From the IMG/VR virus record IMGVR_UViG_3300045988_111768: a DNA stretch of 27,914 nt, one strand, 5' to 3'. How positions within the stretch are numbered: the first letter of the stretch is position 1; each line of letters opens with the position of its first letter. The notes under the pieces were generated by a model that ran no database searches, had not been told where the DNA came from, and saw nothing but the letters and a program-made list of their open reading frames with translations. The DNA is from a virus. This document shows, one piece after another, positions 3,092 to 27,322 of this stretch. Position numbers and translations under genes: made by a program.

Positions 3092-3256
3092 ATGGATATA
3101 AAATGCAAAAAGTGCGGGAGGTTTCTGGGGTCTACCGAGCATAGCTTGCAAGTCATGCTCAAGTGCCCTAACTGCCGTGCTTATCTCGCCTATCACGTCA
3201 CCATGCTAAGTGAGAACCATTCTCAATATCATGATAGTATTGGGCATAGAGCATAA
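3092..3256 (+). CDS. Com-like zinc-ribbon protein, 54 aa (below the ORF-track length cutoff)
   Basis: ATG at 3092 lies one base after the portal stop. Translation is MDIKCKKCGRFLGSTEHSLQVMLKCPNCRAYLAYHV..., with CxxC-N16-CxxC and the basic/hydrophobic context of the phage Mu Com translational-activator family. Stop is TAA at 3254-3256. Confidence 0.6.
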   Translation: MDIKCKKCGRFLGSTEHSLQVMLKCPNCRAYLAYHVTMLSENHSQYHDSIGHRA

Positions 3257-7545: not shown

Positions 7546-7596
7546 GCTGGAAACATAGAATATTGATAATCATTCTCAACAAGGAAGGTATCAAGA

Positions 7597-14404: not shown

Positions 14405-14410
14405 GGTGGT

Positions 14411-14704
14411 GTGTCTGTGTCGGGTTTGATCGCCGCGGTAATTGGGTCTAACGCTTTTTTGACTGTCGTGACGTGGCTGTTGCAGCGTGTTGATTCGCGC
14501 CGTGACCCTCTGCGCGATGGTGTCCGTGAGCTGCTTTTCTGCAAGCTTGAGGCACTGCACTTGCGCATGGTGGATAATGACGGCGTTATGAGCGTGCCTG
14601 ACAAGGAGACTGCCGAGCGTATTTATGATTCTTATCATGCTTTGGGTGGGAATGGTGTTGGTACGCGCATGATTGCCGAAATTCGTCAGGCTCATATCAA
14701 ATAA
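14411..14704 (+). CDS. Small membrane protein (one N-terminal TM), possible holin or lysis accessory protein
   Basis: GTG start. The TM segment is GLIAAVIGSNAFLTVVTWLL. It lies directly upstream of the endolysin gene. Confidence 0.55.
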   Translation: MSVSGLIAAVIGSNAFLTVVTWLLQRVDSRRDPLRDGVRELLFCKLEALHLRMVDNDGVMSVPDKETAERIYDSYHALGGNGVGTRMIAEIRQAHIK

Positions 14705-14725
14705 TCATCCAAGGAGGTAAAAATA

Positions 14726-15451
14726 ATGGTTAATACAGCGGTTCAGGCTCTTGCCAAGGCACGACAGGTTCACAGCGGGTATGGTGGCTATTGTCTCAAG
14801 TTCGTACAGGACTGCTACGGCGCATCCGCGAAATATCCCAGTGCTATCGCGGCGTGGAATGCTTCGCAGCATAAGCACGTAACCAGCACAACGGCAGGCA
14901 TTCCACTCGGTGCGCCTATCTATATGACCAACGGCGGACGTTACGGACACGTCGCCATCTACGCCGGTAACGGCCAGATGATTACGACCAACAGCATCAC
15001 TAACAAGGTCGGCAGTGCATCCGTGCAGGGCTGGGTCAATTCCGGCTACAGGCTGCTCGGCTGGACTTCGGACATCGAAGACCAGATGATCCCGGGACTG
15101 GAAGCGGCCACCTCTTCCGTGCTTGCTGTTGACGGCAGCGCCGGAGCGGCTACAGTGCGCCGCTGGCAGCAGGTAATGGGCACTACCGTGGATGGAGTAA
15201 TCAGCGGACAGCAGCATGTTACCGGCAGGGGTTGGGGGCGTCCGGCAATTGAGCATTCCTTGCGGTATGGTCGTGGCGGTTCCGAGCTGATTCGTCGCGT
15301 GCAGCGTGCTTGTGGCGTGATGGCCGATGGTCTGCTTGGCCCTGATACTGTTCGCGCCATTCAGCGGCATCTTGGTGTGTCTGCGGATGGCTGGTTTGGT
15401 GCTGGGGCTGTTCGCGCGTTGCAGCAGCGTCTTAACACTGGCCGATTCTGA
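14726..15451 (+). CDS. Endolysin: papain-like (CHAP/NlpC-type) amidase or peptidase domain plus peptidoglycan-binding repeats
   Basis: Strong SD AAGGAGG. N-terminal Cys...His signature (GGYCLKFVQDCYG ... GRYGHVAIYAGNG). C-terminal repeats have PG_binding_1 character (GSAGAATVRRWQQVMG, ADGLLGPDTVRAIQRHLG, ADGWFGAGAVRALQQRL). Confidence 0.85.
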   Translation: MVNTAVQALAKARQVHSGYGGYCLKFVQDCYGASAKYPSAIAAWNASQHKHVTSTTAGIPLGAPIYMTNGGRYGHVAIYAGNGQMITTNSITNKVGSASVQGWVNSGYRLLGWTSDIEDQMIPGLEAATSSVLAVDGSAGAATVRRWQQVMGTTVDGVISGQQHVTGRGWGRPAIEHSLRYGRGGSELIRRVQRACGVMADGLLGPDTVRAIQRHLGVSADGWFGAGAVRALQQRLNTGRF

Positions 15452-15468
15452 GAGAGGTGGTGGAGATT

Positions 15469-15690
15469 ATGAAGCATGGCGCGGAGGATGCGCAGGATAC
15501 TGCTTATACGCCTGTGTTCAACAGCACGGTTCGCACTGTGGTTTATGTTGCCGGGCTTGTCGCGTCCGCGGTTGGTCTTGGCTTTATGACTTTCGGCGAT
15601 GCCGCGGTTGGCGGTTATATCAGCACTGTTGCGGGTTTGATTACGGCTGGTTTTGGTGTCGCGTATAATCCGCTGCGTGTTAACGGTTGA
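15469..15690 (+). CDS. Holin (two predicted TM helices)
   Basis: ATG at 15469 after GGTGGAG. TM segments are TVVYVAGLVASAVGLGFMTF and GYISTVAGLITAGFGVAY. It follows the endolysin gene. Confidence 0.7.
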   Translation: MKHGAEDAQDTAYTPVFNSTVRTVVYVAGLVASAVGLGFMTFGDAAVGGYISTVAGLITAGFGVAYNPLRVNG

Positions 15691-15721
15691 GCCTGTTACA
15701 GGGCTGATTACATGCGTTTAA

Positions 15722-15752
15722 GGGGGTGGCTGTGTTGGCTACCCCCTTTTTC
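15722..15752 (+). terminator. Rho-independent terminator at the convergence point of the late and early arms
   Basis: GGGGGTGGC-tgtgttg-GCTACCCCC followed by ttttttc. It is preceded by an A-poor flank, so it is mainly plus-strand. The minus-strand operon also ends here. Confidence 0.8.
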
Positions 15753-15779
15753 TGTCTCTATGCTGTTCGGCGTGTTTGC

Positions 15780-16001
15780 TCATGTTGCCATTTGACAAGA
15801 GCGGTGCCGTTCGACACCGTTTGTGTCCTCTTCGATCAGGCATAGCCATGTCGTGCCGTCAGTTTTTACTGTTTGGAGTCGTGGCGTGCAGCAGTGTGCA
15901 GGTGGCTGTTGTGGTGGGGCGATTGCGCATATTGCGCATATGCTGAGGATTGCCGCGAATATGGAGATGTTTACACTTATGATTAGCGGTAGATTTTTCA
16001 T
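15780..16001 (-). CDS. Small membrane or possible lipoprotein (73 aa), unknown function
   Basis: N-terminal hydrophobic segment is LPLIISVNISIFAAILSICAICAIA, with Cys residues after it. ATGA overlap couples it to the upstream gene. It is the last gene of the leftward arm. Confidence 0.55.
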   Translation of the reverse strand: MKNLPLIISVNISIFAAILSICAICAIAPPQQPPAHCCTPRLQTVKTDGTTWLCLIEEDTNGVERHRSCQMAT

Positions 16002-16234
16002 CCTTTATCCTCGCTTTGGTTGGGTACTTCGGACGGCATGGAGCCGGAATAGCCGAGCAGATGACGGCAATAATTGATTACATGCGCATAAGCCGTCGCC
16101 ATTCCGTCGTAAAAGTTGTATTTCAGCCTTCTTCGTCTGGTACCGGAAGCGTTATTAGCTGCTTCCCACTCTTTTTCCAGATAGTCGATGACTTGTTGTA
16201 ATGCTTTGTCTTTTTCGGTTACGTTCGTAGCCAT
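15998..16234 (-). CDS. Hypothetical protein (78 aa)
   Basis: SD GGAGAAAACC precedes the ATG. It is coupled to the downstream gene. No motif was recognised. Confidence 0.55.
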   Translation of the reverse strand: MATNVTEKDKALQQVIDYLEKEWEAANNASGTRRRRLKYNFYDGMATAYAHVINYCRHLLGYSGSMPSEVPNQSEDKG

Positions 16235-16243
16235 GGTTTTCTC

Positions 16244-16351
16244 CTAGTAGTTTACGGCTTCGGTGCGTGTAATGAAGAAGTGTATGCCGGTAGTGCATTC
16301 GACCCAACGGTTAATGTTGAAGCTTTCAACTGTTGCTGTTTTGATTTTCAT
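16244..16351 (-). CDS. Hypothetical micro-protein (35 aa, below the ORF-track cutoff)
   Basis: AAGGAAAGGAACCATAATG start context. Translation is MKIKTATVESFNINRWVECTTGIHFFITRTEAVNY. Stop is TAG at 16244-16246. Confidence 0.45.
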   Translation of the reverse strand: MKIKTATVESFNINRWVECTTGIHFFITRTEAVNY

Positions 16352-16378
16352 TATGGTTCCTTTCCTTTGGTTGTGCTC

Positions 16379-16762
16379 TCAATCATCCATAACCGTCAGC
16401 CCCTGCATGAGACTGTGGGACTGTCCGAGTTCCAATTGCATCGCCGGAATGATCAGCCGCGTGCAGAGTTTCGTCTCGTTTTGCACGCGCGGGCATCTTC
16501 TGCTGCTTGCCCAGTCTATTAGCTGCGGTTGCGTGCATCCGACTTTGTGCGCTGCTTCGCGCGTGGTCAGGCCAAGCAGCATGATGGCCGTTTTGATTCG
16601 TGCGCCTAGCATGATCTCGTCGCATGCGCCGCCGAGTGTTACCGGCTTCCATGTGCCTGCAAGCGTCTTTACTGCCAGTTGGCCGTACCGGTTTTGCCAT
16701 ATTTCGTGGTCTGCTTCGGCGTAGCTTACGAGTGTCCAGTCTGGTTTGTGTTGGTTTCCCAT
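16379..16762 (-). CDS. HTH DNA-binding protein (XRE/Cro-like HTH in the C-terminal half), candidate early regulator
   Basis: LGARIKTAIMLLGLTTREAAHKVGCTQPQLIDWASSRRCP is a classical XRE-type helix-turn-helix. SD is AGGAAGGA. Confidence 0.75.
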   Translation of the reverse strand: MGNQHKPDWTLVSYAEADHEIWQNRYGQLAVKTLAGTWKPVTLGGACDEIMLGARIKTAIMLLGLTTREAAHKVGCTQPQLIDWASSRRCPRVQNETKLCTRLIIPAMQLELGQSHSLMQGLTVMDD

Positions 16763-16805
16763 GTTTTATCCTTCCTGTGGTGTCGGTATTTGTGTTGTGT
16801 GGTGT

Positions 16806-16829
16806 GGGGCGTGTCTCTTGGCACGCCCC
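16806..16829. promoter_or_regulatory. Perfect palindrome or hairpin H1: GGGGCGTG-N8-CACGCCCC, between P1 and the HTH gene
   Basis: Read directly. No U-tract lies on the sense (minus) side. It is 23/24 identical to the reverse complement of H2 at 21065-21088. Confidence 0.7.
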
Positions 16830-16848
16830 TTAGTGGCAGATTCTTGTA

Positions 16849-17190
16849 CTATGCTTCAATCAGTGTGTAACGTCCGTAGGTTTTGAGGAATCTACCGAGC
16901 TTAAGGCCATAGTGTGCGAGCTTTTCGTTAGCTGCGGCTTCCCATTCCTCGTTAGCTGCGGCTTCCCACACTTCCCCGTGTGCCCTACGTGGCAATCCTT
17001 CGACTCGCTCGATATCATGGTATGTGACATCACTTTCTAAATCGATGTGCCATTCATGGTCAGAGCCGAACCAGAGTCGATTACCGGTGATACCATCCTT
17101 AATAACGATGGCGGTACGTGTGATGTCGCCGTAGATGGCAACTGGCTTGATTAGGACGGCCTTATTGTGGGTGTCAATTGCTGTGAGCAT
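16849..17190 (-). CDS. Small protein P1 (113 aa), paralog of 21098-21424
   Basis: It aligns by eye along its whole length with P2 (M-TAID..., PVA(I/V)Y, DG(I/N)TGN, ERVEG, EEWEAAAN, YGLKLG, (T/E)L(I/V)EA). It contains an in-frame 24-bp tandem duplication. Confidence 0.8.
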   Translation of the reverse strand: MLTAIDTHNKAVLIKPVAIYGDITRTAIVIKDGITGNRLWFGSDHEWHIDLESDVTYHDIERVEGLPRRAHGEVWEAAANEEWEAAANEKLAHYGLKLGRFLKTYGRYTLIEA

Positions 17191-17256
17191 TGTTTGTCCT
17201 TTCCTTGGTTTGGTTGATAACTACGATATTACTCTACCTGTGCCAACGACACGCAG
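17191..17256 (-). promoter_or_regulatory. Promoter-leader cassette A
   Basis: In sense orientation: tGCGTGTCGttggcacaggtagagTAATATcgtagttatcaaccaaaccAAGGAAAGGAcaaacaATG. The -10-like hexamer is at 17226-17231 and GCGTGT lies 17 bp upstream (17249-17254). Confidence 0.6.
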
Positions 17257-17263
17257 AGGAAAC

Positions 17264-17291
17264 AAAAAAGAGGGGCGATTTCTCGCCCCTC
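17264..17291 (-). terminator. Rho-independent terminator (minus strand)
   Basis: In sense orientation: GAGGGGCGA-gaaa-TCGCCCCTC followed by TTTTTTG. It lies 10 nt after the stop of 17301-17648. Confidence 0.85.
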
Positions 17292-17300
17292 CCTCAACGC

Positions 17301-17648
17301 TTACAACGTGCCTAACGTCGTGCTGCAACCGGCCTTATGCCGGTACATGGCACACACGCTGATCGACACCAGCAGGCCACGCAACCCAGTCTTACGCGCC
17401 AACAGCAGCCACGTGATACCGCCGAAGATTGGAGACGCGCACCATCCGCAGTCTGTGAGCTGCCGCAGGCTCTTCGCGGCCTTTGCCTGCTTCGTGTTGC
17501 CGCGTTCTTCCGCGGCCTGTGTAGCTTGCGCCACGGCTTCGCGCCACACATCGCGCATGTCTGCAAGCCTGTAGCCGAATCCGGGCGTGAGCTGCGCACA
17601 GGTCAGGAAATACCCGGCTGCGAGTCCTGCCACGATTGCCTTTTCCAT
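17301..17648 (-). CDS. Small membrane protein (115 aa), unknown function
   Basis: Hydrophobic segments are AIVAGLAAGYFLTCAQL and PIFGGITWLLLA. SD is GGAGGAA. Confidence 0.6.
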   Translation of the reverse strand: MEKAIVAGLAAGYFLTCAQLTPGFGYRLADMRDVWREAVAQATQAAEERGNTKQAKAAKSLRQLTDCGWCASPIFGGITWLLLARKTGLRGLLVSISVCAMYRHKAGCSTTLGTL

Positions 17649-17651
17649 GAT

Positions 17652-17912
17652 TCATTCCTCCATAGCGTCGAAGAGTTCGGCCACATTGTGACACGCCTTG
17701 CCATCGTAAATGAGTGCTGGGAAGCTGCTTGTAATCTCAAGCACATCATCCCACCTAGTGTTACCCGGCTGCACGACTATCAGCCTTGTGCCACTGTCTG
17801 CGAGTGCGTGGCGCGCCCTGTGCAGCATGTCACTTGCCTGCGGGTCGCATTGCACGCAGCCGTCGAAGGCGAGGTATACGACACCTTTTGCCAATCCTTG
17901 CATGCTTACCAC
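17652..17912 (-). CDS. Glutaredoxin/NrdH-like thioredoxin-fold protein
   Basis: CVQC redox motif after a beta-strand (VVYLAFDGCVQC), and a cis-Pro region (SSFPALIYDGK). The start is either GTG at 17912 (overlapping the exonuclease stop) or ATG at 17903. Confidence 0.6.
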   Translation of the reverse strand: MVSMQGLAKGVVYLAFDGCVQCDPQASDMLHRARHALADSGTRLIVVQPGNTRWDDVLEITSSFPALIYDGKACHNVAELFDAMEE

Positions 17913-18796
17913 TCTTCAGTCTCACCAGCGAAGGTCTGCACGGAAAACTTGTTAGATAGCATGTCTGTGTAGGCCAGTGTGTTTCGTCCGCTTTCCAGCT
18001 GCTTTTCCACTTTGTCCTGCACGTCTTCGCGGCGTACAGGCATGACCACGTGAGATAGATTGCAGTACACGCGATCGTCCAGCATCGTGAAATAGACAGT
18101 CTCAAGACTGTCATTCACAGCGAAATACTGAAGCACCTGAGCCTTGTACGTATCAGGCACGAAGTCGAAGGCCGTCAAATCAGCACGCAGCACATCCGGG
18201 AAGAGAGCAAGCAGCATGTCATGGAAAGCATCGGTGGTGCCCACTGTCTTGTCGCCCGAATGCAGGTCATGCCATAGACCATACGGCACTACGGCCATGA
18301 GATGATTCCTAGTGCCGAGCGACTTCGCTTCAAAAGCAAAAGTCGGTTGCTCGGCCTTCTCGTGCGCGTCGGGGCTGATTGCGATTCGCTCATCATCATC
18401 ACGAACCCACATGCCCGTATCAAATTCCACTGTGGCCGTGTCAATGCCGAGCTTTTCGCACGCCTGCCTGATGTTCTCGTTTTCCAACCTGTGACCGCGT
18501 GCCATGGGCGGTTCGCCGTCTGCGGGGTCTGCCCACATCTCGGCAAGGAAGCTCCAGAATTCGGCGGGGACTTTCAAACGCTGATTGTCTACTCGCGCCT
18601 GTTCGGCCTTATGCAGGTATTCGATTCGTTTCGCGTCGGTCTTGGCCTTCTCCGCCATGGCTTCAAGCTTCGCCACGTCCTTCTGTGCGTAGTGTTCCAT
18701 GCTCAACGCTCCGGCCTTCGTGCCGGTGATTTTGCCGATGCGCTGTCGCAGCCATGCGTCGGTGTCCTGTGATTGTGAAATGTCGATGATGTGCAT
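17906..18796 (-). CDS. YqaJ/lambda-exonuclease-like recombination exonuclease
   Basis: N-terminal WLRQRIGKITGTKAGAL and catalytic-region pattern ISPDAHEK...FEAKS are typical of YqaJ-family viral recombinases. Confidence 0.75.
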   Translation of the reverse strand: MHIIDISQSQDTDAWLRQRIGKITGTKAGALSMEHYAQKDVAKLEAMAEKAKTDAKRIEYLHKAEQARVDNQRLKVPAEFWSFLAEMWADPADGEPPMARGHRLENENIRQACEKLGIDTATVEFDTGMWVRDDDERIAISPDAHEKAEQPTFAFEAKSLGTRNHLMAVVPYGLWHDLHSGDKTVGTTDAFHDMLLALFPDVLRADLTAFDFVPDTYKAQVLQYFAVNDSLETVYFTMLDDRVYCNLSHVVMPVRREDVQDKVEKQLESGRNTLAYTDMLSNKFSVQTFAGETEEW

Positions 18797-18822
18797 GATG
18801 GTTTCCTTTCATTGGGTGAGGT

Positions 18823-18845
18823 GGGGCACCCGTGGTGGGTGCCCC
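18823..18845. promoter_or_regulatory. Perfect GC hairpin H3 (GGGGCACCC-gtggt-GGGTGCCCC) between P3 and the exonuclease gene
   Basis: 9-bp perfect stem read directly. No U-tract lies on the sense side. It holds the same position relative to its upstream small gene as H1 and H2. Confidence 0.65.
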
Positions 18846-18855
18846 GTGGTTTTGG

Positions 18856-19146
18856 TTAGAAGTTCTTGAGGTCGTAGTAGAGGGCTGCAACGTCGCCGTC
18901 GCTCATGTCGCGGGCACCACCTTCTTCCATCACTTCTTCTACGCCGTCCTCATCGTAGAAGTATTCAGACCACAGCAGGCAGGATGGTTCGTCTTCGTCG
19001 TAGGCGGCATAGAAGATTCGCCCGTCTTCGAATTCGATTCGTAGCGTGTCGCCTGCATAGATTCCATCTTCGACGCTCGTGCTGCGGATGTCGTTGGTGG
19101 TGTTGTGGAGGGTGCTGCCGATGGTCTGGAGGGTTGGGGTGGTCAT
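18856..19146 (-). CDS. Small, strongly acidic protein P3 (96 aa)
   Basis: ATG at 19146 is fixed by cassette B (the ORF-track start at 19200 reads through the promoter). I count 23 Asp+Glu against 5 Lys+Arg (YDEDEPSCLLWSEYFYDEDGVEEVMEEGG). Confidence 0.7.
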   Translation of the reverse strand: MTTPTLQTIGSTLHNTTNDIRSTSVEDGIYAGDTLRIEFEDGRIFYAAYDEDEPSCLLWSEYFYDEDGVEEVMEEGGARDMSDGDVAALYYDLKNF

Positions 19147-19211
19147 TTCTGTTTCCTTTCCTTGTTGGTTGATAACTCTGATATTACTCGCCATCTCCAT
19201 GCGACACGCCG
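19147..19211 (-). promoter_or_regulatory. Promoter-leader cassette B
   Basis: In sense orientation: CGGCGTGTCGcatggagatggcgagTAATATcagagttatcaaccaacAAGGAAAGGAaacagaaATG. The -10-like hexamer is at 19181-19186 and GCGTGT lies 17 bp upstream (19204-19209). Confidence 0.6.
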
Positions 19212-19486
19212 TGAACCGGAAAATCCACTGGTTTTTTTTCGTCGGCAGGCTGGGACTGCATCACACGACTATTCCTGCCACGCTCCGGCCTGTCATGCTT
19301 GGCATAGCCGCCCTGTTCGATGGCAAGCACTGCGATACTTGCGATGGTCGCAAAGCAGCAGCACACGGCAAGCACAAGGCACTCGGCAGACCAGTCATAG
19401 GCACCCGAGAACGCAAGGCCAAGAGTGAAGCTGGCACCGACAAGACCGAAGATAAAGGCGCTGAAATCAAGCGCGAACTGCTTCAT
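19184..19486 (-). CDS. Small membrane protein (about 100 aa), unknown function
   Basis: ATG at 19486 lies 2 nt after the erf stop. Hydrophobic runs are FSAFIFGLVGASFTLGLAF and LVLAVCCCFATIASIAVLAI. Its 3' end overlaps cassette B. Confidence 0.55.
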   Translation of the reverse strand: MKQFALDFSAFIFGLVGASFTLGLAFSGAYDWSAECLVLAVCCCFATIASIAVLAIEQGGYAKHDRPERGRNSRVMQSQPADEKKPVDFPVHGVSHGDGE

Positions 19487-19487
19487 G

Positions 19488-20069
19488 TCACTCACCCGCC
19501 TTAACGATCTGCGCACGAATAGCCATGATATCGGCCTTGGTCAAATCTTGCGGACGGGTCACAGGATGCCCGAAGTTGGTGGACTGGACTAGCTGGCGTA
19601 TATCCACCCCCGCGGCTTGCGCGTCGCTGCTTACGGCCTGCCAGTCTTTTGCGCTGGCTTTCGCCTGTCCCGAGTGTGATTGCGTCGCACCGTAGCCGTC
19701 ATCATCCTTTTCCGGGAAGATGCCGAGCGCAGCGTACAGGCTATAGCGTCGCGCATAGGTTACGGCGCTGCCTACGGCCTGCGGGTCGCTAAGCACGAAG
19801 AACGGATAGGAGCCGACTGTGAGCGTATCCGCTTCATCGAAGATAACCGTGCGCACGATGCCAAGCGGCTTATCTTCACCCGACACGTATTCGACGGCTT
19901 GATAGAAGCCCATGCCATGCTTGGCGAAGACGGGTTTCACGCCCTTCAGCAGGGTGTCAAGGCCGAGGTACTTGTATTGGCGTTTGCCTGCGTCGGCTCG
20001 CAAATCGGTGACGAATGTCGGGATGTCCTGTAGGAGCTTGGCGTACTTGGTGTTGAGGTTGCTGGTCAT
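19488..20069 (-). CDS. erf: Erf-family single-strand annealing protein
   Basis: KRQYKYLGLDTLLKGVKPVFAKHGMGFYQ and AVGSAVTYARRYSLYAALGI are hallmark Erf motifs. Confidence 0.8.
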   Translation of the reverse strand: MTSNLNTKYAKLLQDIPTFVTDLRADAGKRQYKYLGLDTLLKGVKPVFAKHGMGFYQAVEYVSGEDKPLGIVRTVIFDEADTLTVGSYPFFVLSDPQAVGSAVTYARRYSLYAALGIFPEKDDDGYGATQSHSGQAKASAKDWQAVSSDAQAAGVDIRQLVQSTNFGHPVTRPQDLTKADIMAIRAQIVKAGE

Positions 20070-20146
20070 TTTGGTTTCCTTTCCTTGGTTTGGTTGATAA
20101 CTACGATATTACTCTTGGTTGTCAGTAGCGTCAAAACGACACGCCG
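20070..20146 (-). promoter_or_regulatory. Promoter-leader cassette C
   Basis: In sense orientation: CGGCGTGTCGtTTGACGctactgacaaccaagagTAATATcgtagttatcaaccaaaccAAGGAAAGGAaaccaaaATG. The -10-like hexamer is at 20106-20111 and TTGACG lies 17 bp upstream (20129-20134). The motif is at 20137-20146, inside the upstream gene's 3' end. Confidence 0.65.
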
Positions 20147-20690
20147 AATAATCCATAAAACGCGCCGAGACAATCTCCTTGTCACGCCACAAGCCAAGCG
20201 CACACTTGATTACATGACCCGTGATATCCACAGGCACAGTCGCATACACATCGACGCCACGGCAACCAAGACGCCGCAAGAAATCGCAGCAGGGACAGTC
20301 GCCCGTCCACCTGTACTCGCGGCCATCATCCAAAGTCACAGCCCAATCCCCGCCGTCTCGCACGATAACACACGTTTGCGAGTCCTTGAGCGCATGGACG
20401 GCGAGAGCACTGGCGATCCGTCGCGCTCGCGGACTGCCGTTGGTCGGCAGGTCTGGCATTGGAAGGCGCACGTCATCCACGGTCAGGTCGCACGGCTCCC
20501 CGGCATCGAAGAAAGTCGCCACCATGTCGTGCCAACCGCCGTCCGGTGCAACCGCGTCTATGCGCACGTCGTACATGATGATGCCGAAGTTGCCGCGATA
20601 CCTGCGTACCTCGCACGCTTCGACATACCATCCATATTGGCCGAGATAGTCGGCAATCCTGTCCCCGAGCTTCTTCACAACCTTGTTCAC
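20109..20690 (-). CDS. Hypothetical protein (193 aa) with a C-terminal Cys/His cluster
   Basis: GTG start overlaps the upstream stop (GTGA). GDCPCCDFLRRLGCRG...TGHVIKC suggests a zinc-binding, loosely SWIM-like module. No confident family was recognised. Confidence 0.6.
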   Translation of the reverse strand: MNKVVKKLGDRIADYLGQYGWYVEACEVRRYRGNFGIIMYDVRIDAVAPDGGWHDMVATFFDAGEPCDLTVDDVRLPMPDLPTNGSPRARRIASALAVHALKDSQTCVIVRDGGDWAVTLDDGREYRWTGDCPCCDFLRRLGCRGVDVYATVPVDITGHVIKCALGLWRDKEIVSARFMDYSACRFDATDNQE

Positions 20691-21019
20691 AATGCTTCTC
20701 CGATTTCCTTGGTGGTGATGGTCCCCGTCCAGATTTCCGGTGCCTTGTCCATGATTGCCTTGGAGTCATCAATAAGACAGTCGATAACATAGTTTTCGGC
20801 CAAGAGTCGCAGCCCATAATCTTGCTGCACGTGCTTTTCAAGCACGATGTGCCCGGCCTTCTCGTACCATTCCGCAAGCTCCCAGAGCATTCGGGAGATT
20901 TGCATTTCGTCTGTCCATGCTTCCTTGCGCCATTGCTTGCCGTCTAGGTAGAGCGTTGCGTCTCGTAGCCATCTGTGGTCGTCGCGGCTGGTGATGATGC
21001 AGACCCTGTGCTGTTTCAT
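20687..21019 (-). CDS. Hypothetical protein (110 aa)
   Basis: SD is AAGGAAAGAGAA. It is translationally coupled to 20109-20690. No motif was recognised. Confidence 0.6.
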   Translation of the reverse strand: MKQHRVCIITSRDDHRWLRDATLYLDGKQWRKEAWTDEMQISRMLWELAEWYEKAGHIVLEKHVQQDYGLRLLAENYVIDCLIDDSKAIMDKAPEIWTGTITTKEIGEAL

Positions 21020-21064
21020 TATCGTTCTCTTTCCTTGTTTGGTTTAATGTTTTTCGGTGTGTGT

Positions 21065-21088
21065 GGGGCGTGCCGAGAGACACGCCCC
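21065..21088. promoter_or_regulatory. Perfect palindrome or hairpin H2: GGGGCGTG-N8-CACGCCCC, just downstream of P2
   Basis: Read directly. It has the same stems as H1, and its loop (CCGAGAGA) is the reverse complement of the H1 loop (TCTCTTGG) apart from one base. Confidence 0.7.
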
Positions 21089-21097
21089 TAGTCTGTG

Positions 21098-21424
21098 TCA
21101 GGCTTCTACCAGCTCGTACCTGTCCCCGGCCTTCTCATCGAATGCGCCGAGCTTAAGCCCGTAGTAGTCAAGCAGCTTGTTTGCGGCTGCTTCCCATTCC
21201 TCTTCGTCAGCGCCGTACACGCCTTCGACTCGCTCAGCGGAATGTGCCGCGTCGCCGTCATATGCCGAATCGGTATACCATTCGCGGGTAATGTCGCTGT
21301 ATGCGAGGGGATTCCCGGTGTTGCCATCAACGATTAGCAGCGTGTCGTATGCGTTGCTCGCGTAGACGGCGACGGGCTGAACGTCGATAACTTCGTTGGT
21401 GTTTAAATCGATTGCGGTAGTCAT
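21098..21424 (-). CDS. Small acidic protein P2 (108 aa), paralog of P1
   Basis: See P1. I count 23 Asp+Glu against 6 Lys+Arg. It has a single copy of the EEWEAAAN segment. Confidence 0.8.
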   Translation of the reverse strand: MTTAIDLNTNEVIDVQPVAVYASNAYDTLLIVDGNTGNPLAYSDITREWYTDSAYDGDAAHSAERVEGVYGADEEEWEAAANKLLDYYGLKLGAFDEKAGDRYELVEA

Positions 21425-21491
21425 TTTGGTTTCCTTCCTGTTGTCTGGTTGATAACTCTGATATTACTGCTGATTGCGACACGACACGCCG
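21425..21491 (-). promoter_or_regulatory. Promoter-leader cassette D
   Basis: In sense orientation: CGGCGTGTCGTGTCGcaatcagcagTAATATcagagttatcaaccagacaacAGGAAGGAaaccaaaATG. The -10-like hexamer is at 21461-21466 and the outer GCGTGT lies 17 bp upstream (21484-21489). Confidence 0.6.
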
Positions 21492-21510
21492 ATAACCAGG
21501 AAATCCCATA

Positions 21511-22590
21511 TCACGAGCCAGAATTAGACACAAGCTCTATACCCTCACCAATCCACCGCATCACAGGAACGGCCATGGAATTACCCAGGGCTTTGTAACG
21601 CTTGGAATCTGGCGCGTGCTCGGCACCACGCCACGGCACATCCGTATACCCGTCAGGGAAGCCTTGCAGTCTTTCGCACTCGATAGCCGTAAGCCGTCGA
21701 ACGGCAAACCCTGGCGAGTTAACGAAGCACGCGCTTTTACCGTCATGCGCTGTCAACGTGGGCGACAAATCATGGCCGACACTAAGCGTGCTTGAGTCAG
21801 TCGAGCAATACGGTGGATTGATAAAGCAAGCTCCCCGCGCATCCATCGTGGTCAAAGTCGGAGCTATGTCATGGCCGACGCTCATATGTACGCCGGTATC
21901 CGACGCGCAATAAACGCGTTGCTCTAGTCTTTGGAGTCCTGGAGTGCTGTCAATGCTGCAAGATGCCGATCTAGAGCTTGCATTAGCTCGCTTGGCAAAG
22001 GCTTTGCGCGCTTCCGCGCTCGATTGATAATCCCAACGCAGGCTCTCTCGCTCAAATAGTACCGGTGCGGCACGTCGCCAGTCTCTAGTATTGACAACAA
22101 GGAACACACGTCTGCGTCGCTGTGCCACTCCGTAGAATTGAGCGTCAAGCACCCGCCATGCCGCCCCGCCATCAGGCCAGAGTTCGGCCACGCCTGCGAG
22201 CAGTGAGCCGAAAGCGCGCCCTCCATCTGCGGATAATACGCCGGGAACGTTTTCCCATACAATCCATTCTGGATTAATTTCATGGCAAGCTCGGAGATAT
22301 TCGAGCATGAGCCGGCCGCGCGGGTCATCCAACGCCTTCCTGAGTCCTGCGATGCTGAATGCCTGGCAGGGGCTTCCTCCGACCACAATGTCAACTGCTC
22401 CACGGTATTTGCTCCAATCTACTTTTGTCATATCTCCAAGGTCAGGCACTCCTTGGTAGTGGTGTGCGAGTACCGATTTTGGGAATGGGTCTATTTCAGA
22501 GTAGGCGACTGCTTCCCAGCCTAGTGGTTTCCAAGCCACGGTTGCTGCTTCTATCCCGCTGAAAAGGCTTATGTATTTTAGCGGTTTCAT
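21511..22590 (-). CDS. DNA (cytosine-5) methyltransferase with a tandemly duplicated target-recognition module
   Basis: Motifs occur in canonical order: LFSGIEA (I), GGSPCQAFS (IV), ENVPG (VI), QRRRRVFLV (VIII), RRLTAIECERLQGFP (IX), GNSMAVPV (X). ATG at 22590 is fixed by cassette E (the ORF-track start at 22617 is upstream of the SD). Confidence 0.9.
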   Translation of the reverse strand: MKPLKYISLFSGIEAATVAWKPLGWEAVAYSEIDPFPKSVLAHHYQGVPDLGDMTKVDWSKYRGAVDIVVGGSPCQAFSIAGLRKALDDPRGRLMLEYLRACHEINPEWIVWENVPGVLSADGGRAFGSLLAGVAELWPDGGAAWRVLDAQFYGVAQRRRRVFLVVNTRDWRRAAPVLFERESLRWDYQSSAEARKAFAKRANASSRSASCSIDSTPGLQRLEQRVYCASDTGVHMSVGHDIAPTLTTMDARGACFINPPYCSTDSSTLSVGHDLSPTLTAHDGKSACFVNSPGFAVRRLTAIECERLQGFPDGYTDVPWRGAEHAPDSKRYKALGNSMAVPVMRWIGEGIELVSNSGS

Positions 22591-22652
22591 TGCGTGTTCC
22601 TTCCTTTTTGGTGACAATATTGATATTAGTCGCTCTCACAGGCGACACGCCG
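22591..22652 (-). promoter_or_regulatory. Promoter-leader cassette E (diverged copy)
   Basis: In sense orientation: CGGCGTGTCGcctgtgagagcgacTAATATcaatattgtcaccaaaAAGGAAGGAacacgcaATG. The -10-like hexamer is at 22623-22628 and GCGTGT lies 16 bp upstream (22645-22650). Confidence 0.55.
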
Positions 22653-22660
22653 AGGATACG

Positions 22661-22691
22661 AAAAAAGGCGGCACGCCTAGAACATGCCGCC
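22661..22691 (-). terminator. Rho-independent terminator (minus strand)
   Basis: In sense orientation: GGCGGCA-tgttctaggcg-TGCCGCC followed by TTTTTTCG. Confidence 0.7.
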
Positions 22692-22780
22692 ATGTGTACC
22701 ATTCGCCGGTGCCCCGACACGGCTGGCACTACCGCTGGCAGCGGTTGGTGCGCATCCTTGGAGATGCGTTCTGCCGTACA
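22661..22780 (-). ncRNA. Candidate ~120-nt small RNA bounded by its own TATAAT promoter and the 22661-22691 terminator
   Basis: No credible ORF is present (the longest sense ATG frame is 19 codons, with no SD). Internal hairpins are CGCATC-N6-GATGCG (22751-22768) and ACCGC-tggca-GCGGT (22731-22745). The ends are predicted, not measured. Confidence 0.35.
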
Positions 22781-22786
22781 AACACC

Positions 22787-22815
22787 ATTATACGAGCTTT
22801 AGTCGATCCGCGCCG
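22787..22815 (-). promoter_or_regulatory. Candidate promoter for the sRNA candidate
   Basis: A perfect TATAAT on the minus strand lies at 22787-22792. CGGCGCGG at 22808-22815 resembles the cassette motif at a -35-like distance. Confidence 0.4.
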
Positions 22816-22829
22816 AACGGCATAAAAAT

Positions 22830-22884
22830 CCCCCCACCTGAGTTGTACTTGCTTTGGGCAGTCCCGAAGCCCTCTAGTGGGGGG
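22830..22884. other. Long-range GC stem (CCCCCCAC ... GTGGGGGG) enclosing 39 nt, flanked by T/A runs on both sides
   Basis: Read directly in the non-coding island downstream of the loader gene. In minus sense ATTTTTAT follows it. The loop is too large for a textbook intrinsic terminator. Confidence 0.4.
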
Positions 22885-22997
22885 TGCTTTTCCTATGCAC
22901 AACTACATGTGCAGGAGACGCATAGCTGTAATCTTACCAGACAGACAAGAGAATCATGCCACTTGTCACGTTGGATACACAAAACGTTCACACGCAA

Positions 22998-23840
22998 TCA
23001 CAGGCCAAGCAATGACTTCGCGCTCATAATATTGCGCTCCATCTTGCGAGTGCGCCTATCCGCTCCAGTCACCTCGATAGGAACACACATCTCCTTAAGA
23101 CGGGAGTAGACGCGCTGGCGTCGAATGTCTGCGGGGTCGGCAAGCTCGCCAATGGTGAGGTTGGTGGTGACGACTATTGGCAGGCCACTACGATACCGTG
23201 CGTCGATGATGGTCATGACCTGTTCCCATACATACTCAGTGTTCCGTTCAACGGCCATGTCATCGATTACGAGCAGGTCGAAACGGCTCAGATTGTCGAT
23301 GTATTTCTGTCGCCCGTCGAAGCTCTCTTGCAGCCTGTTGATGATGCGGGTGAAATTGGTCATCATGCACGGTGTGCCATTGTCTATCAGGGCGTTGGCT
23401 ATGCACGCTGCCGCGAAGCTCTTACCGCAGCCTACGTTACCGTAGAGCATCAGCCCGGTGCCGTTTGAGCGCATGGCATCGAAATTAGCCACGTACTTGC
23501 GTGCGATGCCCATAAGATTGGTGTTGCCGCCATCATCATTAGCAAACGTCCATTTGCGCATCTCGGCGTCTGGGAAGCCGGTACGTCGCATACCGTCCAA
23601 GTATTGCATTCGGTCGCGCTTGCGTTTTTCCTCGGCTTCGATGCGATTATGCTCTACGACGCATTTGCACGCGCATGACAACACCTTTATCTTGCCAAGA
23701 AACGGCTGGCGTACCTGCTTTTGCGTGTGGCATTTGCCGCACATAAGCAGCCCGTCCGCATTACGGTAGTCGCCTTCCTGTTCGGCGTATTGTTGTGCGG
23801 CACGTGCCGCGATACTGCCAAAAACGTTGTTCGATTCCAT
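22998..23840 (-). CDS. DnaC/IstB-like AAA+ helicase loader with an N-terminal Cys-rich zinc-finger region
   Basis: Walker A is GNVGCGKSFAAAC and Walker B is FDLLVIDDM. The N-terminal cluster is CGKCHTQKQ...LSCACKC. Confidence 0.85.
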   Translation of the reverse strand: MESNNVFGSIAARAAQQYAEQEGDYRNADGLLMCGKCHTQKQVRQPFLGKIKVLSCACKCVVEHNRIEAEEKRKRDRMQYLDGMRRTGFPDAEMRKWTFANDDGGNTNLMGIARKYVANFDAMRSNGTGLMLYGNVGCGKSFAAACIANALIDNGTPCMMTNFTRIINRLQESFDGRQKYIDNLSRFDLLVIDDMAVERNTEYVWEQVMTIIDARYRSGLPIVVTTNLTIGELADPADIRRQRVYSRLKEMCVPIEVTGADRRTRKMERNIMSAKSLLGL

Positions 23841-23856: not shown

Positions 23857-24672
23857 TCATGCCTTGAATTGGCTCATGAGTTCCATTGCCCTGTCACGTT
23901 CGGCCTGTGTTTCGCGTCGGTCGGCGGGGAGGGTAACGGCCTGCGCCTGCTGCTTATAGCCTTGGCTTTGGTAGGTTTTGATGGGATAAAACGCGTTCCA
24001 GCCACGACGGATTACCTCGGAAAGATAATCATCTACACTCATGTTGCTTTGCGCTGCATAGGCATCTAGCTTGTCGATATTGCGCTTGATCGCGTTGTCT
24101 GTCATTGCCGCTCGTTTCGCCTTACGGTTTTGCAACCACTCGCCTAAAAGCTCTTTAGTGGTGGCATTGGACGTGTAGGCATCAATAATCGCGTCGAAGC
24201 TATGACGCTTTCTTTCTTTCTTTTTTACAGAGGTGTTTACACCAGAGGTTACACATGTGTTTATATCTGGTATAGGTTCGTCATTTTTGACACTTTGATT
24301 TGTCACATCTGACATTTCCATTTGTCGTTTTTGACAAATGGATGTGTCAATACCGAACAATGCTTCTGACTTTTCCGTAAGTGTGTACCATTGCGTTCTG
24401 TCGTAAGCCGATTTATTGTAATTGCCTACGATAATCAACCCTTCTTCCCTAAGCTTGTCCAAGGCCGTGCGAATACCGCGTGCCTTGATATACGGAAACA
24501 GCTCCTCGAACGCCTTCATACTATTGAACGTCCAGTAATGCCCATCGTGGTAGTTTTCCTCGTTTGCCTTGTTGTGCTCGCACCAATGCGCGATGTTCTC
24601 CAAGATGATAGCGGCGTTAACGCCGACCATTTGAGCAACTTCAACATCGAAGACATGTTTTTTCATAATCAA
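23857..24672 (-). CDS. Replication initiation or replisome organiser protein (N-terminal winged-helix-like domain plus DnaD-like C-terminal domain)
   Basis: The C-terminal segment LGEWLQNRKAKRAAMTDNAIKRNIDKLD...SEVIRRGWNAFYP resembles the DnaD/DnaB_2 domain. It lies directly upstream of the loader gene. A TTG start at 24672 sits 6 nt after AAGGA; the alternative is ATG at 24666. Confidence 0.75.
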   Translation of the reverse strand: MIMKKHVFDVEVAQMVGVNAAIILENIAHWCEHNKANEENYHDGHYWTFNSMKAFEELFPYIKARGIRTALDKLREEGLIIVGNYNKSAYDRTQWYTLTEKSEALFGIDTSICQKRQMEMSDVTNQSVKNDEPIPDINTCVTSGVNTSVKKKERKRHSFDAIIDAYTSNATTKELLGEWLQNRKAKRAAMTDNAIKRNIDKLDAYAAQSNMSVDDYLSEVIRRGWNAFYPIKTYQSQGYKQQAQAVTLPADRRETQAERDRAMELMSQFKA

Positions 24673-24693
24673 TTACCATCCTTTGGTAAAAAT

Positions 24694-24793
24694 AATCCCG
24701 CCACCTTCCGATTCTCGTCCAATCAGAGGGTAGCGGGATTGTCGCGTTAGGTTATGACCCATCACGTTCGATGGGACGAGCATCTAACGCGAC
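24694..24793. promoter_or_regulatory. Two abutting perfect inverted repeats in the leader or control region of the replication operon
   Basis: AATCCCGC (24694-24701) pairs with GCGGGATT (24733-24740). GTCGCGTTAG (24741-24750) pairs with CTAACGCGAC (24784-24793), with a nested CCCATC-acgttc-GATGGG (24758-24775). Confidence 0.7.
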
Positions 24794-24803
24794 GTTGCTT
24801 ACT

Positions 24804-24832
24804 ATTATACACGATGTTTTAGGTTCCCTTGT
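24804..24832 (-). promoter_or_regulatory. Candidate leftward promoter of the replication operon
   Basis: A perfect TATAAT on the minus strand lies at 24804-24809, in the context cgtgTATAAT shared with the tRNA promoter. The -35 is weak (ACAAGG/GACAAG). Confidence 0.45.
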
Positions 24833-24890
24833 CGGCGTGTCCATTATGCAGACACGTGCCGTATTGGCTTCAATCAGCCGCGACACGCCG
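24833..24890. promoter_or_regulatory. Inverted repeat of the cassette motif: CGGCGTGTC (24833-24841) and GACACGCCG (24882-24890), with a related GACACGTGCCG between them
   Basis: Read directly in the divergent rep/ssb intergenic region. It is the same 9-mer as in cassettes B-E. Confidence 0.6.
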
Positions 24891-24950
24891 AAGTCTATGC
24901 CACGTAGTAACGTTGGAAACGTCCAAAAAAACAACCGAAAGGAACACACC

Positions 24951-27034: not shown

Positions 27035-27062
27035 TTGAGTCTGACCAGTGTCCGTGTATAAT
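27035..27062 (+). promoter_or_regulatory. Sigma-70-like promoter upstream of the tRNA
   Basis: TTGAGT (27035-27040), a 16-bp spacer, then TATAAT (27057-27062). This is the best canonical promoter match I see in the window. Confidence 0.55.
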
Positions 27063-27125
27063 TGATTATTGGAATTCGTTCATAACAAAAAGCGCGCACT
27101 ATTCGGCTTGTCGTATGGTGCGCAT

Positions 27126-27210
27126 TGGAGCGTTGCACGAGTGGCTTAAGTGGGCACCCTGCTAAGGTGCTAACCGATAATGGTTCAGGGGTTCGAATCC
27201 CTTACGTTCC
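27126..27210 (+). tRNA. tRNA-Ser(GCU): tRNA-Ser, anticodon GCU, with a long variable arm and no encoded CCA
   Basis: Folded by hand. Acceptor GGAGCGT/ACGTTCC (7 bp, one G-T). D-stem CAC/GTG with GG in the loop. Anticodon stem GCACC/GGTGC with loop CTGCTAA. 16-nt variable arm (AACC/GGTT stem). T-arm AGGGG-TTCGAAT-CCCTT. Discriminator G. Confidence 0.85.
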
Positions 27211-27322
27211 GCGATGCCCGGCGGTTATGGCGGCTGGCGGGTATTGGCTGCTTGCGCGTTTCGGCTCCTTTCCTCGCAGGCAGCCGGTTTGGTGATAAAG
27301 CCTTCACATTGTGGAGGTTGGT

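Follow-up and report, generated by a model that had tools for sequence, protein, structure and literature searches.

The window, namely the whole 27,914-nt stretch analyzed here, is a complete circular phage genome (27.8-kb); the phage is uncultured and its host is most likely a gut Bifidobacterium. The late arm runs one way and the early arm the opposite way, a layout resembling that of SPO1 and the lactococcal 936 and c2 phages, and a scan of the early and accessory ORFs revealed no integrase. In the early arm, five copies of a repeated element, termed cassettes A to E, were located directly 5′ of the minus-strand ATG codons at 17190, 19146, 20069, 21424, and 22590. The transcription units that they head (P1, the P3-exonuclease operon, erf, the P2 operon, and the methyltransferase) fit the gene map, and the gene for a 127-aa helix-turn-helix (HTH) protein follows P1 behind cassette A. 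P2 is a paralogue of P1, and P1, P2, and P3 gave no match to any family or solved structure. The products of most of the five units are small acidic proteins, recombination proteins, or a DNA methyltransferase. Spacers against the window phage, one of which matches the cassette core, were found in CRISPR arrays bearing the B. angulatum type I-E repeat, and an active type I-E array in the host lineage is filled with spacers that target the phage family. The coordinates are summarized in Table 1.

Table 1 Cassettes, boxes, terminators, and the candidate regulator gene in the window.
Feature	Position	Strand	Context	Elements
XRE-fold HTH protein, 127-aa	16379..16762	-	downstream of cassette A; candidate box or leader binder	
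First palindromic double box	16806..16829	.	between P1 and HTH gene; no T-run, no adjacent -10	GGGGCGTGTC-TCTT-GGCACGCCCC
Cassette A	17187..17276	-	upstream of P1; nhmmer E 6.6e-21	box TGCGTGTCG 17247-17255; -10 TAATAT 17226-17231; TTATCAACCA 17211-17220; ATG 17188-17190
Intrinsic terminator	17266..17295	-	directly upstream of cassette A	13-pair stem, then T-run
Cassette B	19143..19231	-	upstream of P3 + YqaJ exonuclease unit; nhmmer E 3.9e-20	box 19202-19210; -10 19181-19186
Cassette C	20067..20170	-	upstream of erf; nhmmer E 2.3e-17	box 20137-20145; TTGACG 20129-20134; TAATAT 20106-20111
Second palindromic double box	21065..21088	.	between P2 and ORF 20687..21019	flipped relative to the first
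Cassette D	21422..21511	-	upstream of P2; nhmmer E 4.5e-21	box 21482-21490; -10 21461-21466
Cassette E	22587..22672	-	diverged copy; upstream of C5 cytosine methyltransferase; nhmmer E 3.3e-15	box 22643-22651; -10 22623-22628; +1 block TTGTCACC
Intrinsic terminator	22667..22691	-	directly upstream of cassette E	GGCGGCATGTTCTAGGCGTGCCGCC-T6
Divergent control region	24834..24889	.	between replication operon (leftward) and ssb (rightward)	
Control region, minus-strand elements		-		box GGCGTGTCG 24881-24889; GGCACGTGTC 24851-24860
Control region, inverted box	24834-24841		at -44..-37 of TGTATAAT (24804-24811)	

The gene-sense consensus of the cassettes was tcGGCGTGTCRc, N15-17, AG-TAATAT-C, RKAG, TTATCAACCAAAC, GGAAAGGAAAC, and ATG; its upstream motif, GGCGTGTC(R), is termed the box. 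An nhmmer profile of related cassettes gave exactly five matches in the window, all on the minus strand (E 3e-15 to 5e-21), and the next-best matches (E 0.1 and 1.6) were isolated boxes (divergent control region). The pattern GCGTGTCG-N10-30-AGTAATATC matched 4 times against 0 in 100 shuffles, and GTAATATCNNNGTTATCAACCA matched 4 times against 0 expected; the recurrence is not due to chance, as a previous sequence-only reading had argued. That reading also described the positions of the five elements and their shared runs correctly: A and C share exactly 39 identical nt (17197-17235 = 20077-20115) and B and D exactly 23 (19166-19188 = 21446-21468), and neither run can be extended. Its spacings between GCGTGT and TAATAT were reproduced as well (17 nt in A, B, and D, 16 in E, and 27 in C); measured from the last C of GGCGTGTC, the distances are 16, 15, and 26 nt, respectively. 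Copy E is more diverged, as had been noted, clearly so in the +1 block, and one reading was corrected, as the box of copy A is TGCGTGTCG and not GGCGTGTCG. Cassette C has its box shifted upstream by 10 bp relative to the other four, and a canonical TTGACG stands 17 bp from TAATAT.

TAATAT, which fits the -10 pattern TANNNT, was present in all five window copies and in every related copy with this cassette. Only cassette C (TTGACG-17-TAATAT, 9/12) passed a sigma-70 scan; a TTGACA-like -35 is absent 16-18 bp upstream in A, B, D, and E, where GCGTGT or CGTGTC is found. Across the window and its relatives, 21 distinct cassettes were compared; the box, AG-TAATAT-C, and the +1 block were near-invariant, although at -14..-6 and -2..+9 the conservation of most fetched copies is partly built in, as these bases had been specified in the search pattern. 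For the +1 block, independent evidence comes from two sets only: a box-only regex on loci previously fetched with the bases-fixing pattern, and a pattern that fixed the box and -14..-6 and left the +1 block free. In the same 21 cassettes, the 14 nt between the box and the -10 were free in sequence, whereas their length was held at 15-17 nt (last C of the box to the -10). A spacer constrained only in length speaks for two elements under selection at a fixed distance, and recent copying or gene conversion is disfavoured, since it would not have left the spacer free.

Terminators lie directly 5′ of the box at A, E, and many related copies, and the genes downstream of A and E consequently need their own promoters; in most relatives, the terminator and cassette E move together as one unit. 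No terminator precedes B, C, or D, and the ORFs upstream run into these cassettes: the TAA within TAATAT is the stop codon of ORF 19184..19486 in B and of ORF 20109..20690 in C. Elsewhere in the window, TTGAGT-16-TATAAT precedes a tRNA and TGTATAAT stands at the replication operon, both having the good hexamers of presumed host-only promoters, and TTGACA-16/17-TATACT/TACTAT is in use in a related Bifidobacterium phage. Judging from these promoters, the host reads a canonical -35, which the cassettes other than C lack.

At least 12 related metagenomic phage contigs also carry the cassette, which has at least 10 unrelated gene families downstream, and a search of the relatives showed the element retained upstream of orthologous as well as non-orthologous genes. 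In distant relatives, some of which are temperate, the box occurs at the same distance from other -10 modules (TGTAYAGT, 14-16 nt; TATAAT, 16 nt). C-type copies have TTGACG or TTGACA at 17 bp and a box displaced one helical turn upstream, and at locus L011 TTGCTT-16-TATAGT is closely preceded by an inverted box. On comparison of these arrangements, the box and a canonical -35 appear to be interchangeable. The earlier proposal of a promoter class was thus supported at the sequence level by the invariant -10, the fixed box distance, the terminators, the retention in relatives, and the canonical -35 variants. The methyltransferase segment (21493-22596) was found to be an indel with one end in each of cassettes D and E, D forming its right edge and E its left edge. 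Since the cassettes are near-identical, they also serve as homologous-recombination joints for gene gain and loss.

It had further been suggested that the leader is conserved beyond the needs of a promoter and might embed an RNA-level control element. The extra conservation exists, but much of it consists of a CA-rich tract and the Shine-Dalgarno sequence, which also precede the non-cassette genes at 16350, 18796, and 21019. The repeat GATAAC-N3-GATATT was not conserved, as it reads ATAATCATCAACC in cassettes retrieved without that block. RNA-level control was not borne out: the leaders were less stable than shuffled controls (MFE -0.6 to -2.4 kcal/mol, z +0.2 to +1.6), and Rfam gave no match in the cassettes. 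The leader is unstructured and for the most part a generic strong translation-initiation region.

The box also occurs in other arrangements. In four other phage contigs, perfect 20-bp palindromes, GGCGTGTC-N4-GACACGCC, cover -36..-17 of two promoters; such palindromic boxes over a promoter were found only in the L033-type relatives. The divergent control region, nearly invariant in three relatives, contains three boxes in both orientations, and its TGCATAAT (24843-24850) is bracketed by GGCACGTGTC and the inverted box. From its palindromes and inverted copies, the box probably behaves as a protein half-site. Relative to the promoter, it stands at -36..-29, at -46..-39, inverted at about -41, or as a pair on either side of a -10; this variation fits repression at least as well as activation.

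The 127-aa HTH protein, which the earlier reading had singled out for binding tests, is no more than a candidate for the box regulator, and the only phage one. In fold it resembles XRE repressors, controller proteins, and Aca2, though as a generic XRE match only. Its homologues lie 3′ of a box promoter in L004, L006, L007, L009, L017, L018, L022, L024, and L028-L030, in most cases preceded by different small variable genes; protein and box co-occur in one lineage. In a second box-bearing lineage (L033, L035, L038, and L039), however, no homologue was found in the fetched 12.6 kb, including the early arm.

We tentatively propose that the cassettes are autonomous, portable modules of an early promoter and a 5′ untranslated region, with the box as a putative regulator half-site at the -35 position. 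Host RNA polymerase carrying the housekeeping sigma factor would use AGTAATATC as the -10 region, and transcription would start about 5-8 nt past TAATAT. The box, 16 +/- 1 bp upstream of the -10, occupies the place of a -35 but does not resemble one; it may be bound by one half of a sequence-specific, probably dimeric, regulator. At the cassettes, such a regulator would replace the missing -35 contact, like a class-II or T4-middle-type activator, and it would repress where two boxes cover or bracket the core promoter, as in the control region and the 20-bp palindromes of the relatives. The leader of approximately 30 nt, CA-rich and with a 7-nt Shine-Dalgarno sequence (GAAAGGA), would serve efficient translation. 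One regulator could switch five units jointly: P1 and HTH; P3, the exonuclease, and two small ORFs; erf; P2 and two ORFs; and the methyltransferase. Against this modular reading, promoters free of phage factors would better suit anti-defence and early genes, and B, C, and D lack an upstream terminator and have upstream ORFs running into them. In addition, -35-independent promoters are common in actinobacteria, so the box may not be needed for recruitment of RNA polymerase.

Such promoters are the basis of the strongest alternative, which we consider rather unlikely. Here, -35-independent housekeeping-sigma promoters would fire at DNA entry on host polymerase alone, the box would be a pure operator, and the XRE protein accumulating from cassette A would shut off the five units and the control region, as Aca or Cro proteins do. 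Palindromes over -36..-17 and boxes bracketing TGCATAAT are classic repressor geometries, yet the window cassettes carry a single half-site without an inverted repeat. An operator role alone also leaves unexplained the strict 15-17 nt distance and the -35 hexamers at displaced boxes, and TAATAT with neither TG nor a -35 would be a weak promoter under sigma-70 rules. The gene order agrees with this reading, since the HTH gene lies 3′ of a box promoter in the window and in L004, L006, L007, L009, L017, L018, L022, and L024, where that region was fetched, usually behind at least one small variable gene, and its fold relatives include repressors, controller proteins, and Aca2; nevertheless, boxes and palindromes are present in L033-type phages, whose fetched early arm contains no such homologue. 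Small acidic anti-defence genes would be plausible cargo in view of the active type I-E array against the phage family, and the Aca-mediated shut-off of strong anti-CRISPR promoters (PMC9410906 and PMC8633003) is a precedent, whereas P1, P2, and P3 have no known anti-CRISPR activity.

Direct reading of GGCGTGTC as an unusual -35 by region 4 of a host sigma factor (housekeeping, alternative, or remodelled), with no extra DNA-binding protein, seems improbable. The position and the 15-17 nt tolerance match a -35 element, and a host-side reader would explain why the box pairs with three -10 modules and spans phage lineages that share no DNA-binding protein. However, the box is unlike TTGACA, although hexamers of that type are in use in the same phages and host; a sigma element would not be expected to occur in inverted copies, in 20-bp palindromes, or at a distance from any -10; and the early-arm proteins scanned included none resembling a sigma factor. 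It is very improbable that the cassettes are recombination linkers with leaders optimised for ribosome loading, and perhaps an RNA-processing site, in long transcripts from the promoter at ~24804, their -10-like and box sequences being retained for another reason, such as protein roadblocks or gene-module packaging: the lack of an upstream terminator at B, C, and D, the ORFs ending inside them, the breakpoints within cassettes, and the generic Shine-Dalgarno and CA-rich part agree with this idea, but not the strong terminators at A and E, the invariance of TAATAT and its flanks beside variable bases, the constrained spacer length, or the canonical -35 hexamers at exactly 16-17 bp in variants.

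The promoter-leader modules proposed here were compared with known phage systems. In the SPO1 host-takeover module and the early regions of lactococcal 936 and c2 phages, promoters are near-consensus for sigma-A, with a -35 TTGACA and a TG-extended -10. These arrays likewise consist of many near-identical promoter and strong-RBS units heading short early operons, often separated by terminators; the window cassettes, except for the TTGACG-bearing C, differ in having no -35 similarity. The start-associated sequences of Cluster K mycobacteriophages (SAS and ESAS) reportedly include a 13-bp translation-start element, the SAS. They resemble the cassettes as conserved repeats immediately upstream of many start codons, with a ribosome-binding site, in actinobacteriophages, but the cassette spans 70-90 bp and adds a -10 and an upstream box.

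The stoperators of L5 and other Cluster A mycobacteriophages are 13-bp asymmetric repressor sites, one of which overlaps the -35 of Pleft; the system comprises many copies of the site GGTGGMTGTCAAG, a gp71-type immunity repressor, and an integrase. Stoperators and the cassette motif are both short asymmetric intergenic repeats of actinobacteriophages, in one orientation relative to transcription and overlapping the main early promoter core. In contrast to stoperators, the cassette motif, whose sequence is different, stands at a fixed distance from the -10 in every copy, in 5-10 copies versus 24-30 or more, and the window phage has no identifiable immunity repressor and, in the early and accessory ORFs scanned, no integrase. 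T4 middle promoters combine a MotA box, (a/t)(a/t)TGCTT(t/c)A, centred at -30 with a sigma-70 -10, and AsiA and MotA appropriate sigma. They too are a multi-copy phage class with a good -10 and a conserved element at a fixed distance replacing the -35. The cassette box GGCGTGTC is, however, unrelated to the MotA box and also occurs inverted or palindromic, and the host is actinobacterial; Pfam, PHROGs, and NCBIfam scans of the early proteins suggested no MotA or AsiA homologue.

Finally, anti-CRISPR operons are repressed by Aca HTH proteins (PMC9410906 and PMC8633003). The order of a predicted early promoter, small variable gene(s), and a conserved HTH gene, together with an active host CRISPR system aimed at the phage, resembles these operons. 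Aca sites are inverted repeats within the promoter, whereas the window cassettes have a single half-site; P1, P2, and P3 have no known Acr function, and the HTH protein is only a generic XRE-fold match. Taken together, the proposed portable promoter-leader with an unusual box at the -35 position represents a fresh variation on an established phage strategy and does not constitute a system of a new type.

Direct reading of the minus strand located five promoter-plus-leader cassettes (A to E) where the sequence-only reading had described them. The identities that it had noted between copies, 39 nt for A and C and 23 nt for B and D, proved to be maximal runs, and its distances from the box, the conserved element GGCGTGTC at the -35 position, to the -10 hexamer TAATAT were reproduced. 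The pattern GCGTGTCG-N10-30-AGTAATATC matched 4 times in the window and 0 times in shuffled sequences, GTAATATCNNNGTTATCAACCA matched 4 times against 0 expected, and a profile built from related cassettes retrieved exactly five copies from the window (E-values 3e-15 to 5e-21). These three tests placed the five cassettes far above chance.

In gene sense, the consensus begins with tcGGCGTGTCRc, often with a terminator T-run before it. There follow 15-17 nt from the last C of GGCGTGTC to TAATAT, of which the final two are AG and the others free in sequence, then AG-TAATAT-C, RKAG, TTATCAACCAAAC, and finally GGAAAGGAAAC, 3-5 nt and ATG. Among 21 distinct cassettes from the window and its relatives, two blocks were near-invariant while the intervening 14 nt and positions -5 and -4 varied freely, positions -14 to -6 and -2 to +9 being fixed by the search pattern in most cassettes retrieved from relatives. 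Two invariant blocks separated by a free spacer indicate selection on two elements at a set distance, which is not expected from copying or gene conversion. At cassettes B and C, the end of an ORF overlaps the cassette, its stop codon being the TAA of TAATAT. Other readings of the parts were discarded: GTGTCA/GTGTCG of the box as a degenerate -35 would leave a spacer of 14-15 nt, which is too short; a MITE-like mobile element would have terminal inverted repeats or target duplications, and neither was present; and the TTATCAACC block as a DnaA box (7/9 to TTATNCACA) was dropped for its weak match and lack of origin context.

Positions of the features described in the text (in the window unless a locus is named)
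Feature	Position	Strand	Remark
Terminal repeat	1-141, 27774-27914		identical copies
Late genes	up to ~15,700		rightward
Early arm	24,666 to 15,780		leftward
Cassette A	ATG at 17190	minus	P1 and 127-aa HTH protein
Cassette B	ATG at 19146	minus	P3/YqaJ exonuclease
Cassette C	ATG at 20069	minus	erf
Cassette D	ATG at 21424	minus	P2, paralogue of P1
Cassette E	ATG at 22590	minus	C5 methyltransferase
127-aa HTH ORF	16379-16762	minus	
ORF overlapping cassette B	19184..19486		stop at 19184-19186
ORF overlapping cassette C	20109..20690		stop at 20109-20111
Box palindromes, 24 bp	16806-16829, 21065-21088		after P1 and P2
Non-cassette genes with CA-rich tract and SD	16350, 18796, 21019		
Methyltransferase indel	21493-22596		window only, against L025
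Conserved RNA, ~125 nt	about 22661-22815	minus	
TGTCAAAAAYGAC repeats	24280-24357		
Replication-operon leader	24667-24800	minus	
TTGATAAT-N-ATTATCAA sites	880-896, 933-949, 7563-7579	plus	third site before ORF starting at 7597
L023 protospacer (example)	12055-12086		31/32 bases
tRNA-Ser(GCT) gene with promoter	27035-27212	plus	
CRISPR array, L020	about 1480-1560		repeat GTGTTCCCCGCACACGCGGGGATGATCCC
CRISPR array, L023	about 3150-3230		repeat GTGTTCCCCGCACACGCGGGGATGATCCC
Cassette version in L040	10055-10137, 12408-12485		identical copies

The 141-bp terminal repeat marks the window as a complete genome, circular or terminally redundant, with a length of 27,773 bp; the large terminase gene appears to span the junction. 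The early arm encodes a replication organiser, a DnaC-like loader, a C5 methyltransferase, Erf, a YqaJ exonuclease and an XRE HTH protein, together with many small ORFs matching no family, several of them acidic. No integrase was found among the early and accessory ORFs scanned. The tRNA-Ser gene, just upstream of terL, has its own near-consensus promoter (TTGAGT-16-TATAAT), and canonical -35 elements are therefore in use in this genome. No convincing rightward promoter was found for ssb in 24834-24950. Two further features were observed around replication. The TGTCAAAAAYGAC repeats, two exact and two degenerate copies inside the replication-organiser gene, lie in the most AT-rich kilobase of the genome and look like origin iterons. 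The leader of the replication operon contains two hairpins, the second terminator-like (CCCGCTACC...GGTGGCGGG then ATTATTTTT), and shows compensatory changes at six pairs. Its conservation extends to the temperate relatives L028 and L030, and an attenuator or an RNA linked to the origin are possible readings.

The portal protein was 51% identical to those of Bifidobacterium phages BlindBasel1 and BlindUri1, and the endolysin C-terminus 67% identical to that of Bifidobacterium phage Bbif-1. At least 15 of the 101 spacers in the metagenomic CRISPR array of L023 (spacers 7-20, 83, 94) matched the phage family of the window. The repeat of this array, shared with a second metagenomic array in L020, is listed as the type I-E repeat of B. 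angulatum LMG 11039 (PMC4521832). From the repeat type and the matching spacers, the host is most likely a Bifidobacterium of the angulatum group. One spacer, CCGAGAGTAATATCAGAGTTATCAACCAACCAA, matched the cassette core and thereby several sites per phage genome in many phage lineages, which shows that the conserved cassettes offer host CRISPR immunity a multi-copy target.

In exact-pattern scans, at least eight related contigs, viral or metagenomic, proved to carry the cassette, each in one to four copies; several of the retrieved loci are partial contigs. Downstream lay orthologues of P1, P2, P3 and erf as well as other genes, at least 10 families in total. Among 185,579 representative genomes, the exact pattern had a single match, in a Chitinophagaceae MAG; this was taken as chance, and no prophage copy of the cassette was thus seen among these genomes. 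AT-rich matches in thirteen other loci (L001, L005, L008, L010, L012, L014, L016, L019, L031, L032, L034, L036 and L037) were also attributed to chance, having no box, RBS or gene context. Megablast of 14000-23000 against the INPHARED phages gave no match, and a related-locus search with the HTH alignment added no loci to those found by other searches. In BlindBasel1, the nearest named phage, the repeat was not found and the promoters were canonical.

The window is collinear with its closest relative (L025) at 95% identity except for one segment, the methyltransferase indel, whose breakpoints lie inside cassettes D and E. In other relatives, this slot holds different genes, or the cassette-headed units are reordered. 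These data show identical regulatory cassettes acting as joints in gene gain and loss. Directly upstream of cassette E, we also observed a conserved RNA of ~125 nt with its own TATAAT and a strong terminator. It has a tRNA-Trp-like anticodon stem-loop (CUCCAAG), and in seven homologues three of its base pairs show covariation; at this position, relative L004 carries a genuine tRNA-Trp(CCA). The RNA was not recognised by ARAGORN or Rfam.

The surplus conservation of the leader had earlier been taken as a possible sign of RNA-level control. The predicted 5'UTRs, ~30 nt long, folded worse than shuffled versions and the cassettes had no Rfam match at E <= 1, both of which speak against it. The CA-rich tract and the SD (GAAAGGA), which is complementary to the actinobacterial 16S 3' end, also precede three non-cassette genes, which puts most of the surplus conservation down to a generic strong translation-initiation region. 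What is left over is about -3 to +6, possibly a start-site context or a protein half-site. The GATAAC-N3-GATATT repeat proposed in the same reading was not conserved: searches independent of the +1 block, the conserved bases just downstream of TAATAT, returned the variant TTATCAATC (box-only search of related loci) and the variant ATAATCATCAACC in four further phage contigs (box plus -10 scan). Hence, only ATCAACCAAAC is robust downstream. Three copies of the near-palindrome TTGATAAT-N-ATTATCAA were observed in the late arm, each directly after a -10-like hexamer, two of them between terL and the portal gene; the sites are conserved in relative L002. Their half-site TTGATAA is the reverse complement of the cassette +1 block, and TTGATAAY occurs 9 times in the window against 1.2 expected. 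A tie between the +1 block and these sites may be suspected, as a lead rather than a result.

The box was also found outside the cassette. Distant relatives were retrieved solely by their HTH protein, among them temperate phages that encode a serine recombinase. In these relatives, the box precedes an extended -10, ATAGGTGTAYAGT, by 14-16 nt, and the TTATCAACC block is missing. In a second lineage (L033, L035, L038 and L039, here L033-type), a perfect palindrome, GGCGTGTC-N4-GACACGCC, has the box as its left arm, which lies 16 nt from TATAAT, so that -36 to -17 is covered at two different promoters. In C-type copies, TTGACG or TTGACA at 17 bp replaces the box, which is displaced 10 bp upstream, and in L011 TTGCTT at 16 bp replaces it with an inverted box just upstream. 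In the window, the nearly invariant divergent control region (24834-24889) contains three boxes in both orientations, two bracketing TGCATAAT and one at -44 to -37 of TGTATAAT. A prophage-like element beside an integrase in a 450-kb bacterial contig (L040) has two copies of a different cassette version, one ahead of a P2-like gene and the other ahead of a further small acidic gene. This version consists of an inverted box, TTGTAT and the palindrome AATATTACTCC-AAAC-GGAGTAATATT built from GAGTAATAT; the AGTAATAT motif is thus itself part of a palindrome there. The window has two box palindromes, neither with a -10. They follow the paralogues P1 and P2 and are mutual reverse complements in gene sense, and the T/C asymmetry of their arms is preserved at the DNA level, so that the RNA of one orientation would have a C-A mismatch. 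A DNA site fits them better than an RNA hairpin.

The 127-aa protein, which had been proposed to bind the cassettes, was predicted to have a generic XRE HTH fold with an extra N-terminal sheet (pLDDT 85) and matched no specific family. In its own lineage the proposal gained support, a homologue lying downstream of a box promoter in every retrieved contig with that region; BlindBasel1, with its canonical promoters, has no close homologue. As a universal reader of the box it was undermined by the L033-type phages, which have boxes and palindromes but no homologue, nor any XRE protein at all, in 12.6 kb spanning the early arm. The two lineages have only P2-like and Erf-like proteins in common. 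Since two box-bearing lineages share no DNA-binding protein, the reader may be host-encoded or differ between lineages.

On sequence grounds, we tentatively favor, at a little short of an even chance, that the cassettes are promoter-plus-leader modules in which the box, at the -35 position, serves as half-site for a regulator. Positive action of the box would be in keeping with its fixed distance to the -10 and with its interchangeability with canonical -35 hexamers. Two further arguments for it are that TAATAT lacking both TG and a -35 would be weak by sigma-70 rules, and that promoters internal to the lytic operons of temperate relatives would have to be silent in lysogens. Repression would be in keeping with the palindromes covering core promoters and with the box position differing between promoter types; a regulator acting only as a repressor, Aca-like or Cro-like, seems somewhat unlikely. 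In a broader reading, one regulator, possibly host-encoded, would read the 8-bp GGCGTGTC and control, in both directions, portable early/anti-defence cassettes in Bifidobacterium phages, virulent as well as temperate, and in prophage-like elements, a single box replacing the -35 contact and palindromic or bracketing boxes repressing. This we regard as unlikely, but it would represent an actinobacterial counterpart of sigma appropriation and a mobile regulon whose cassettes drive gene shuffling. Direct recognition of the box by a sigma factor would suit its position, and no phage sigma factor was found among the early proteins; we consider it improbable. Only copy C passed a consensus scan as a sigma-70 promoter (TTGACG-17-TAATAT). 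A complete lack of promoter function in the cassettes is highly improbable.

Bifidobacteria are key gut commensals and probiotics. We know of no published work on transcription control in their phages, and no study of promoters in Bifidobacterium phages turned up in literature searches. Should the cassettes prove to be promoters, this phage group would have its first family of regulatory motifs, Bifidobacterium genetics would gain compact parts (promoter, 5'UTR and RBS), and a regulator with a simple 8-bp site would be indicated. Their logic resembles that of T4 middle promoters, L5 stoperators, Cluster K start-associated sequences and the repeated early promoters of SPO1 or lactococcal phages, but the testable features that define each of these were not found here; it also resembles that of Aca-controlled operons, but the inverted-repeat operator in the promoter was absent. 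The cassettes would thus appear to be a new variant, a phage promoter family with its own box at the -35 position in a phage group without prior regulatory data.
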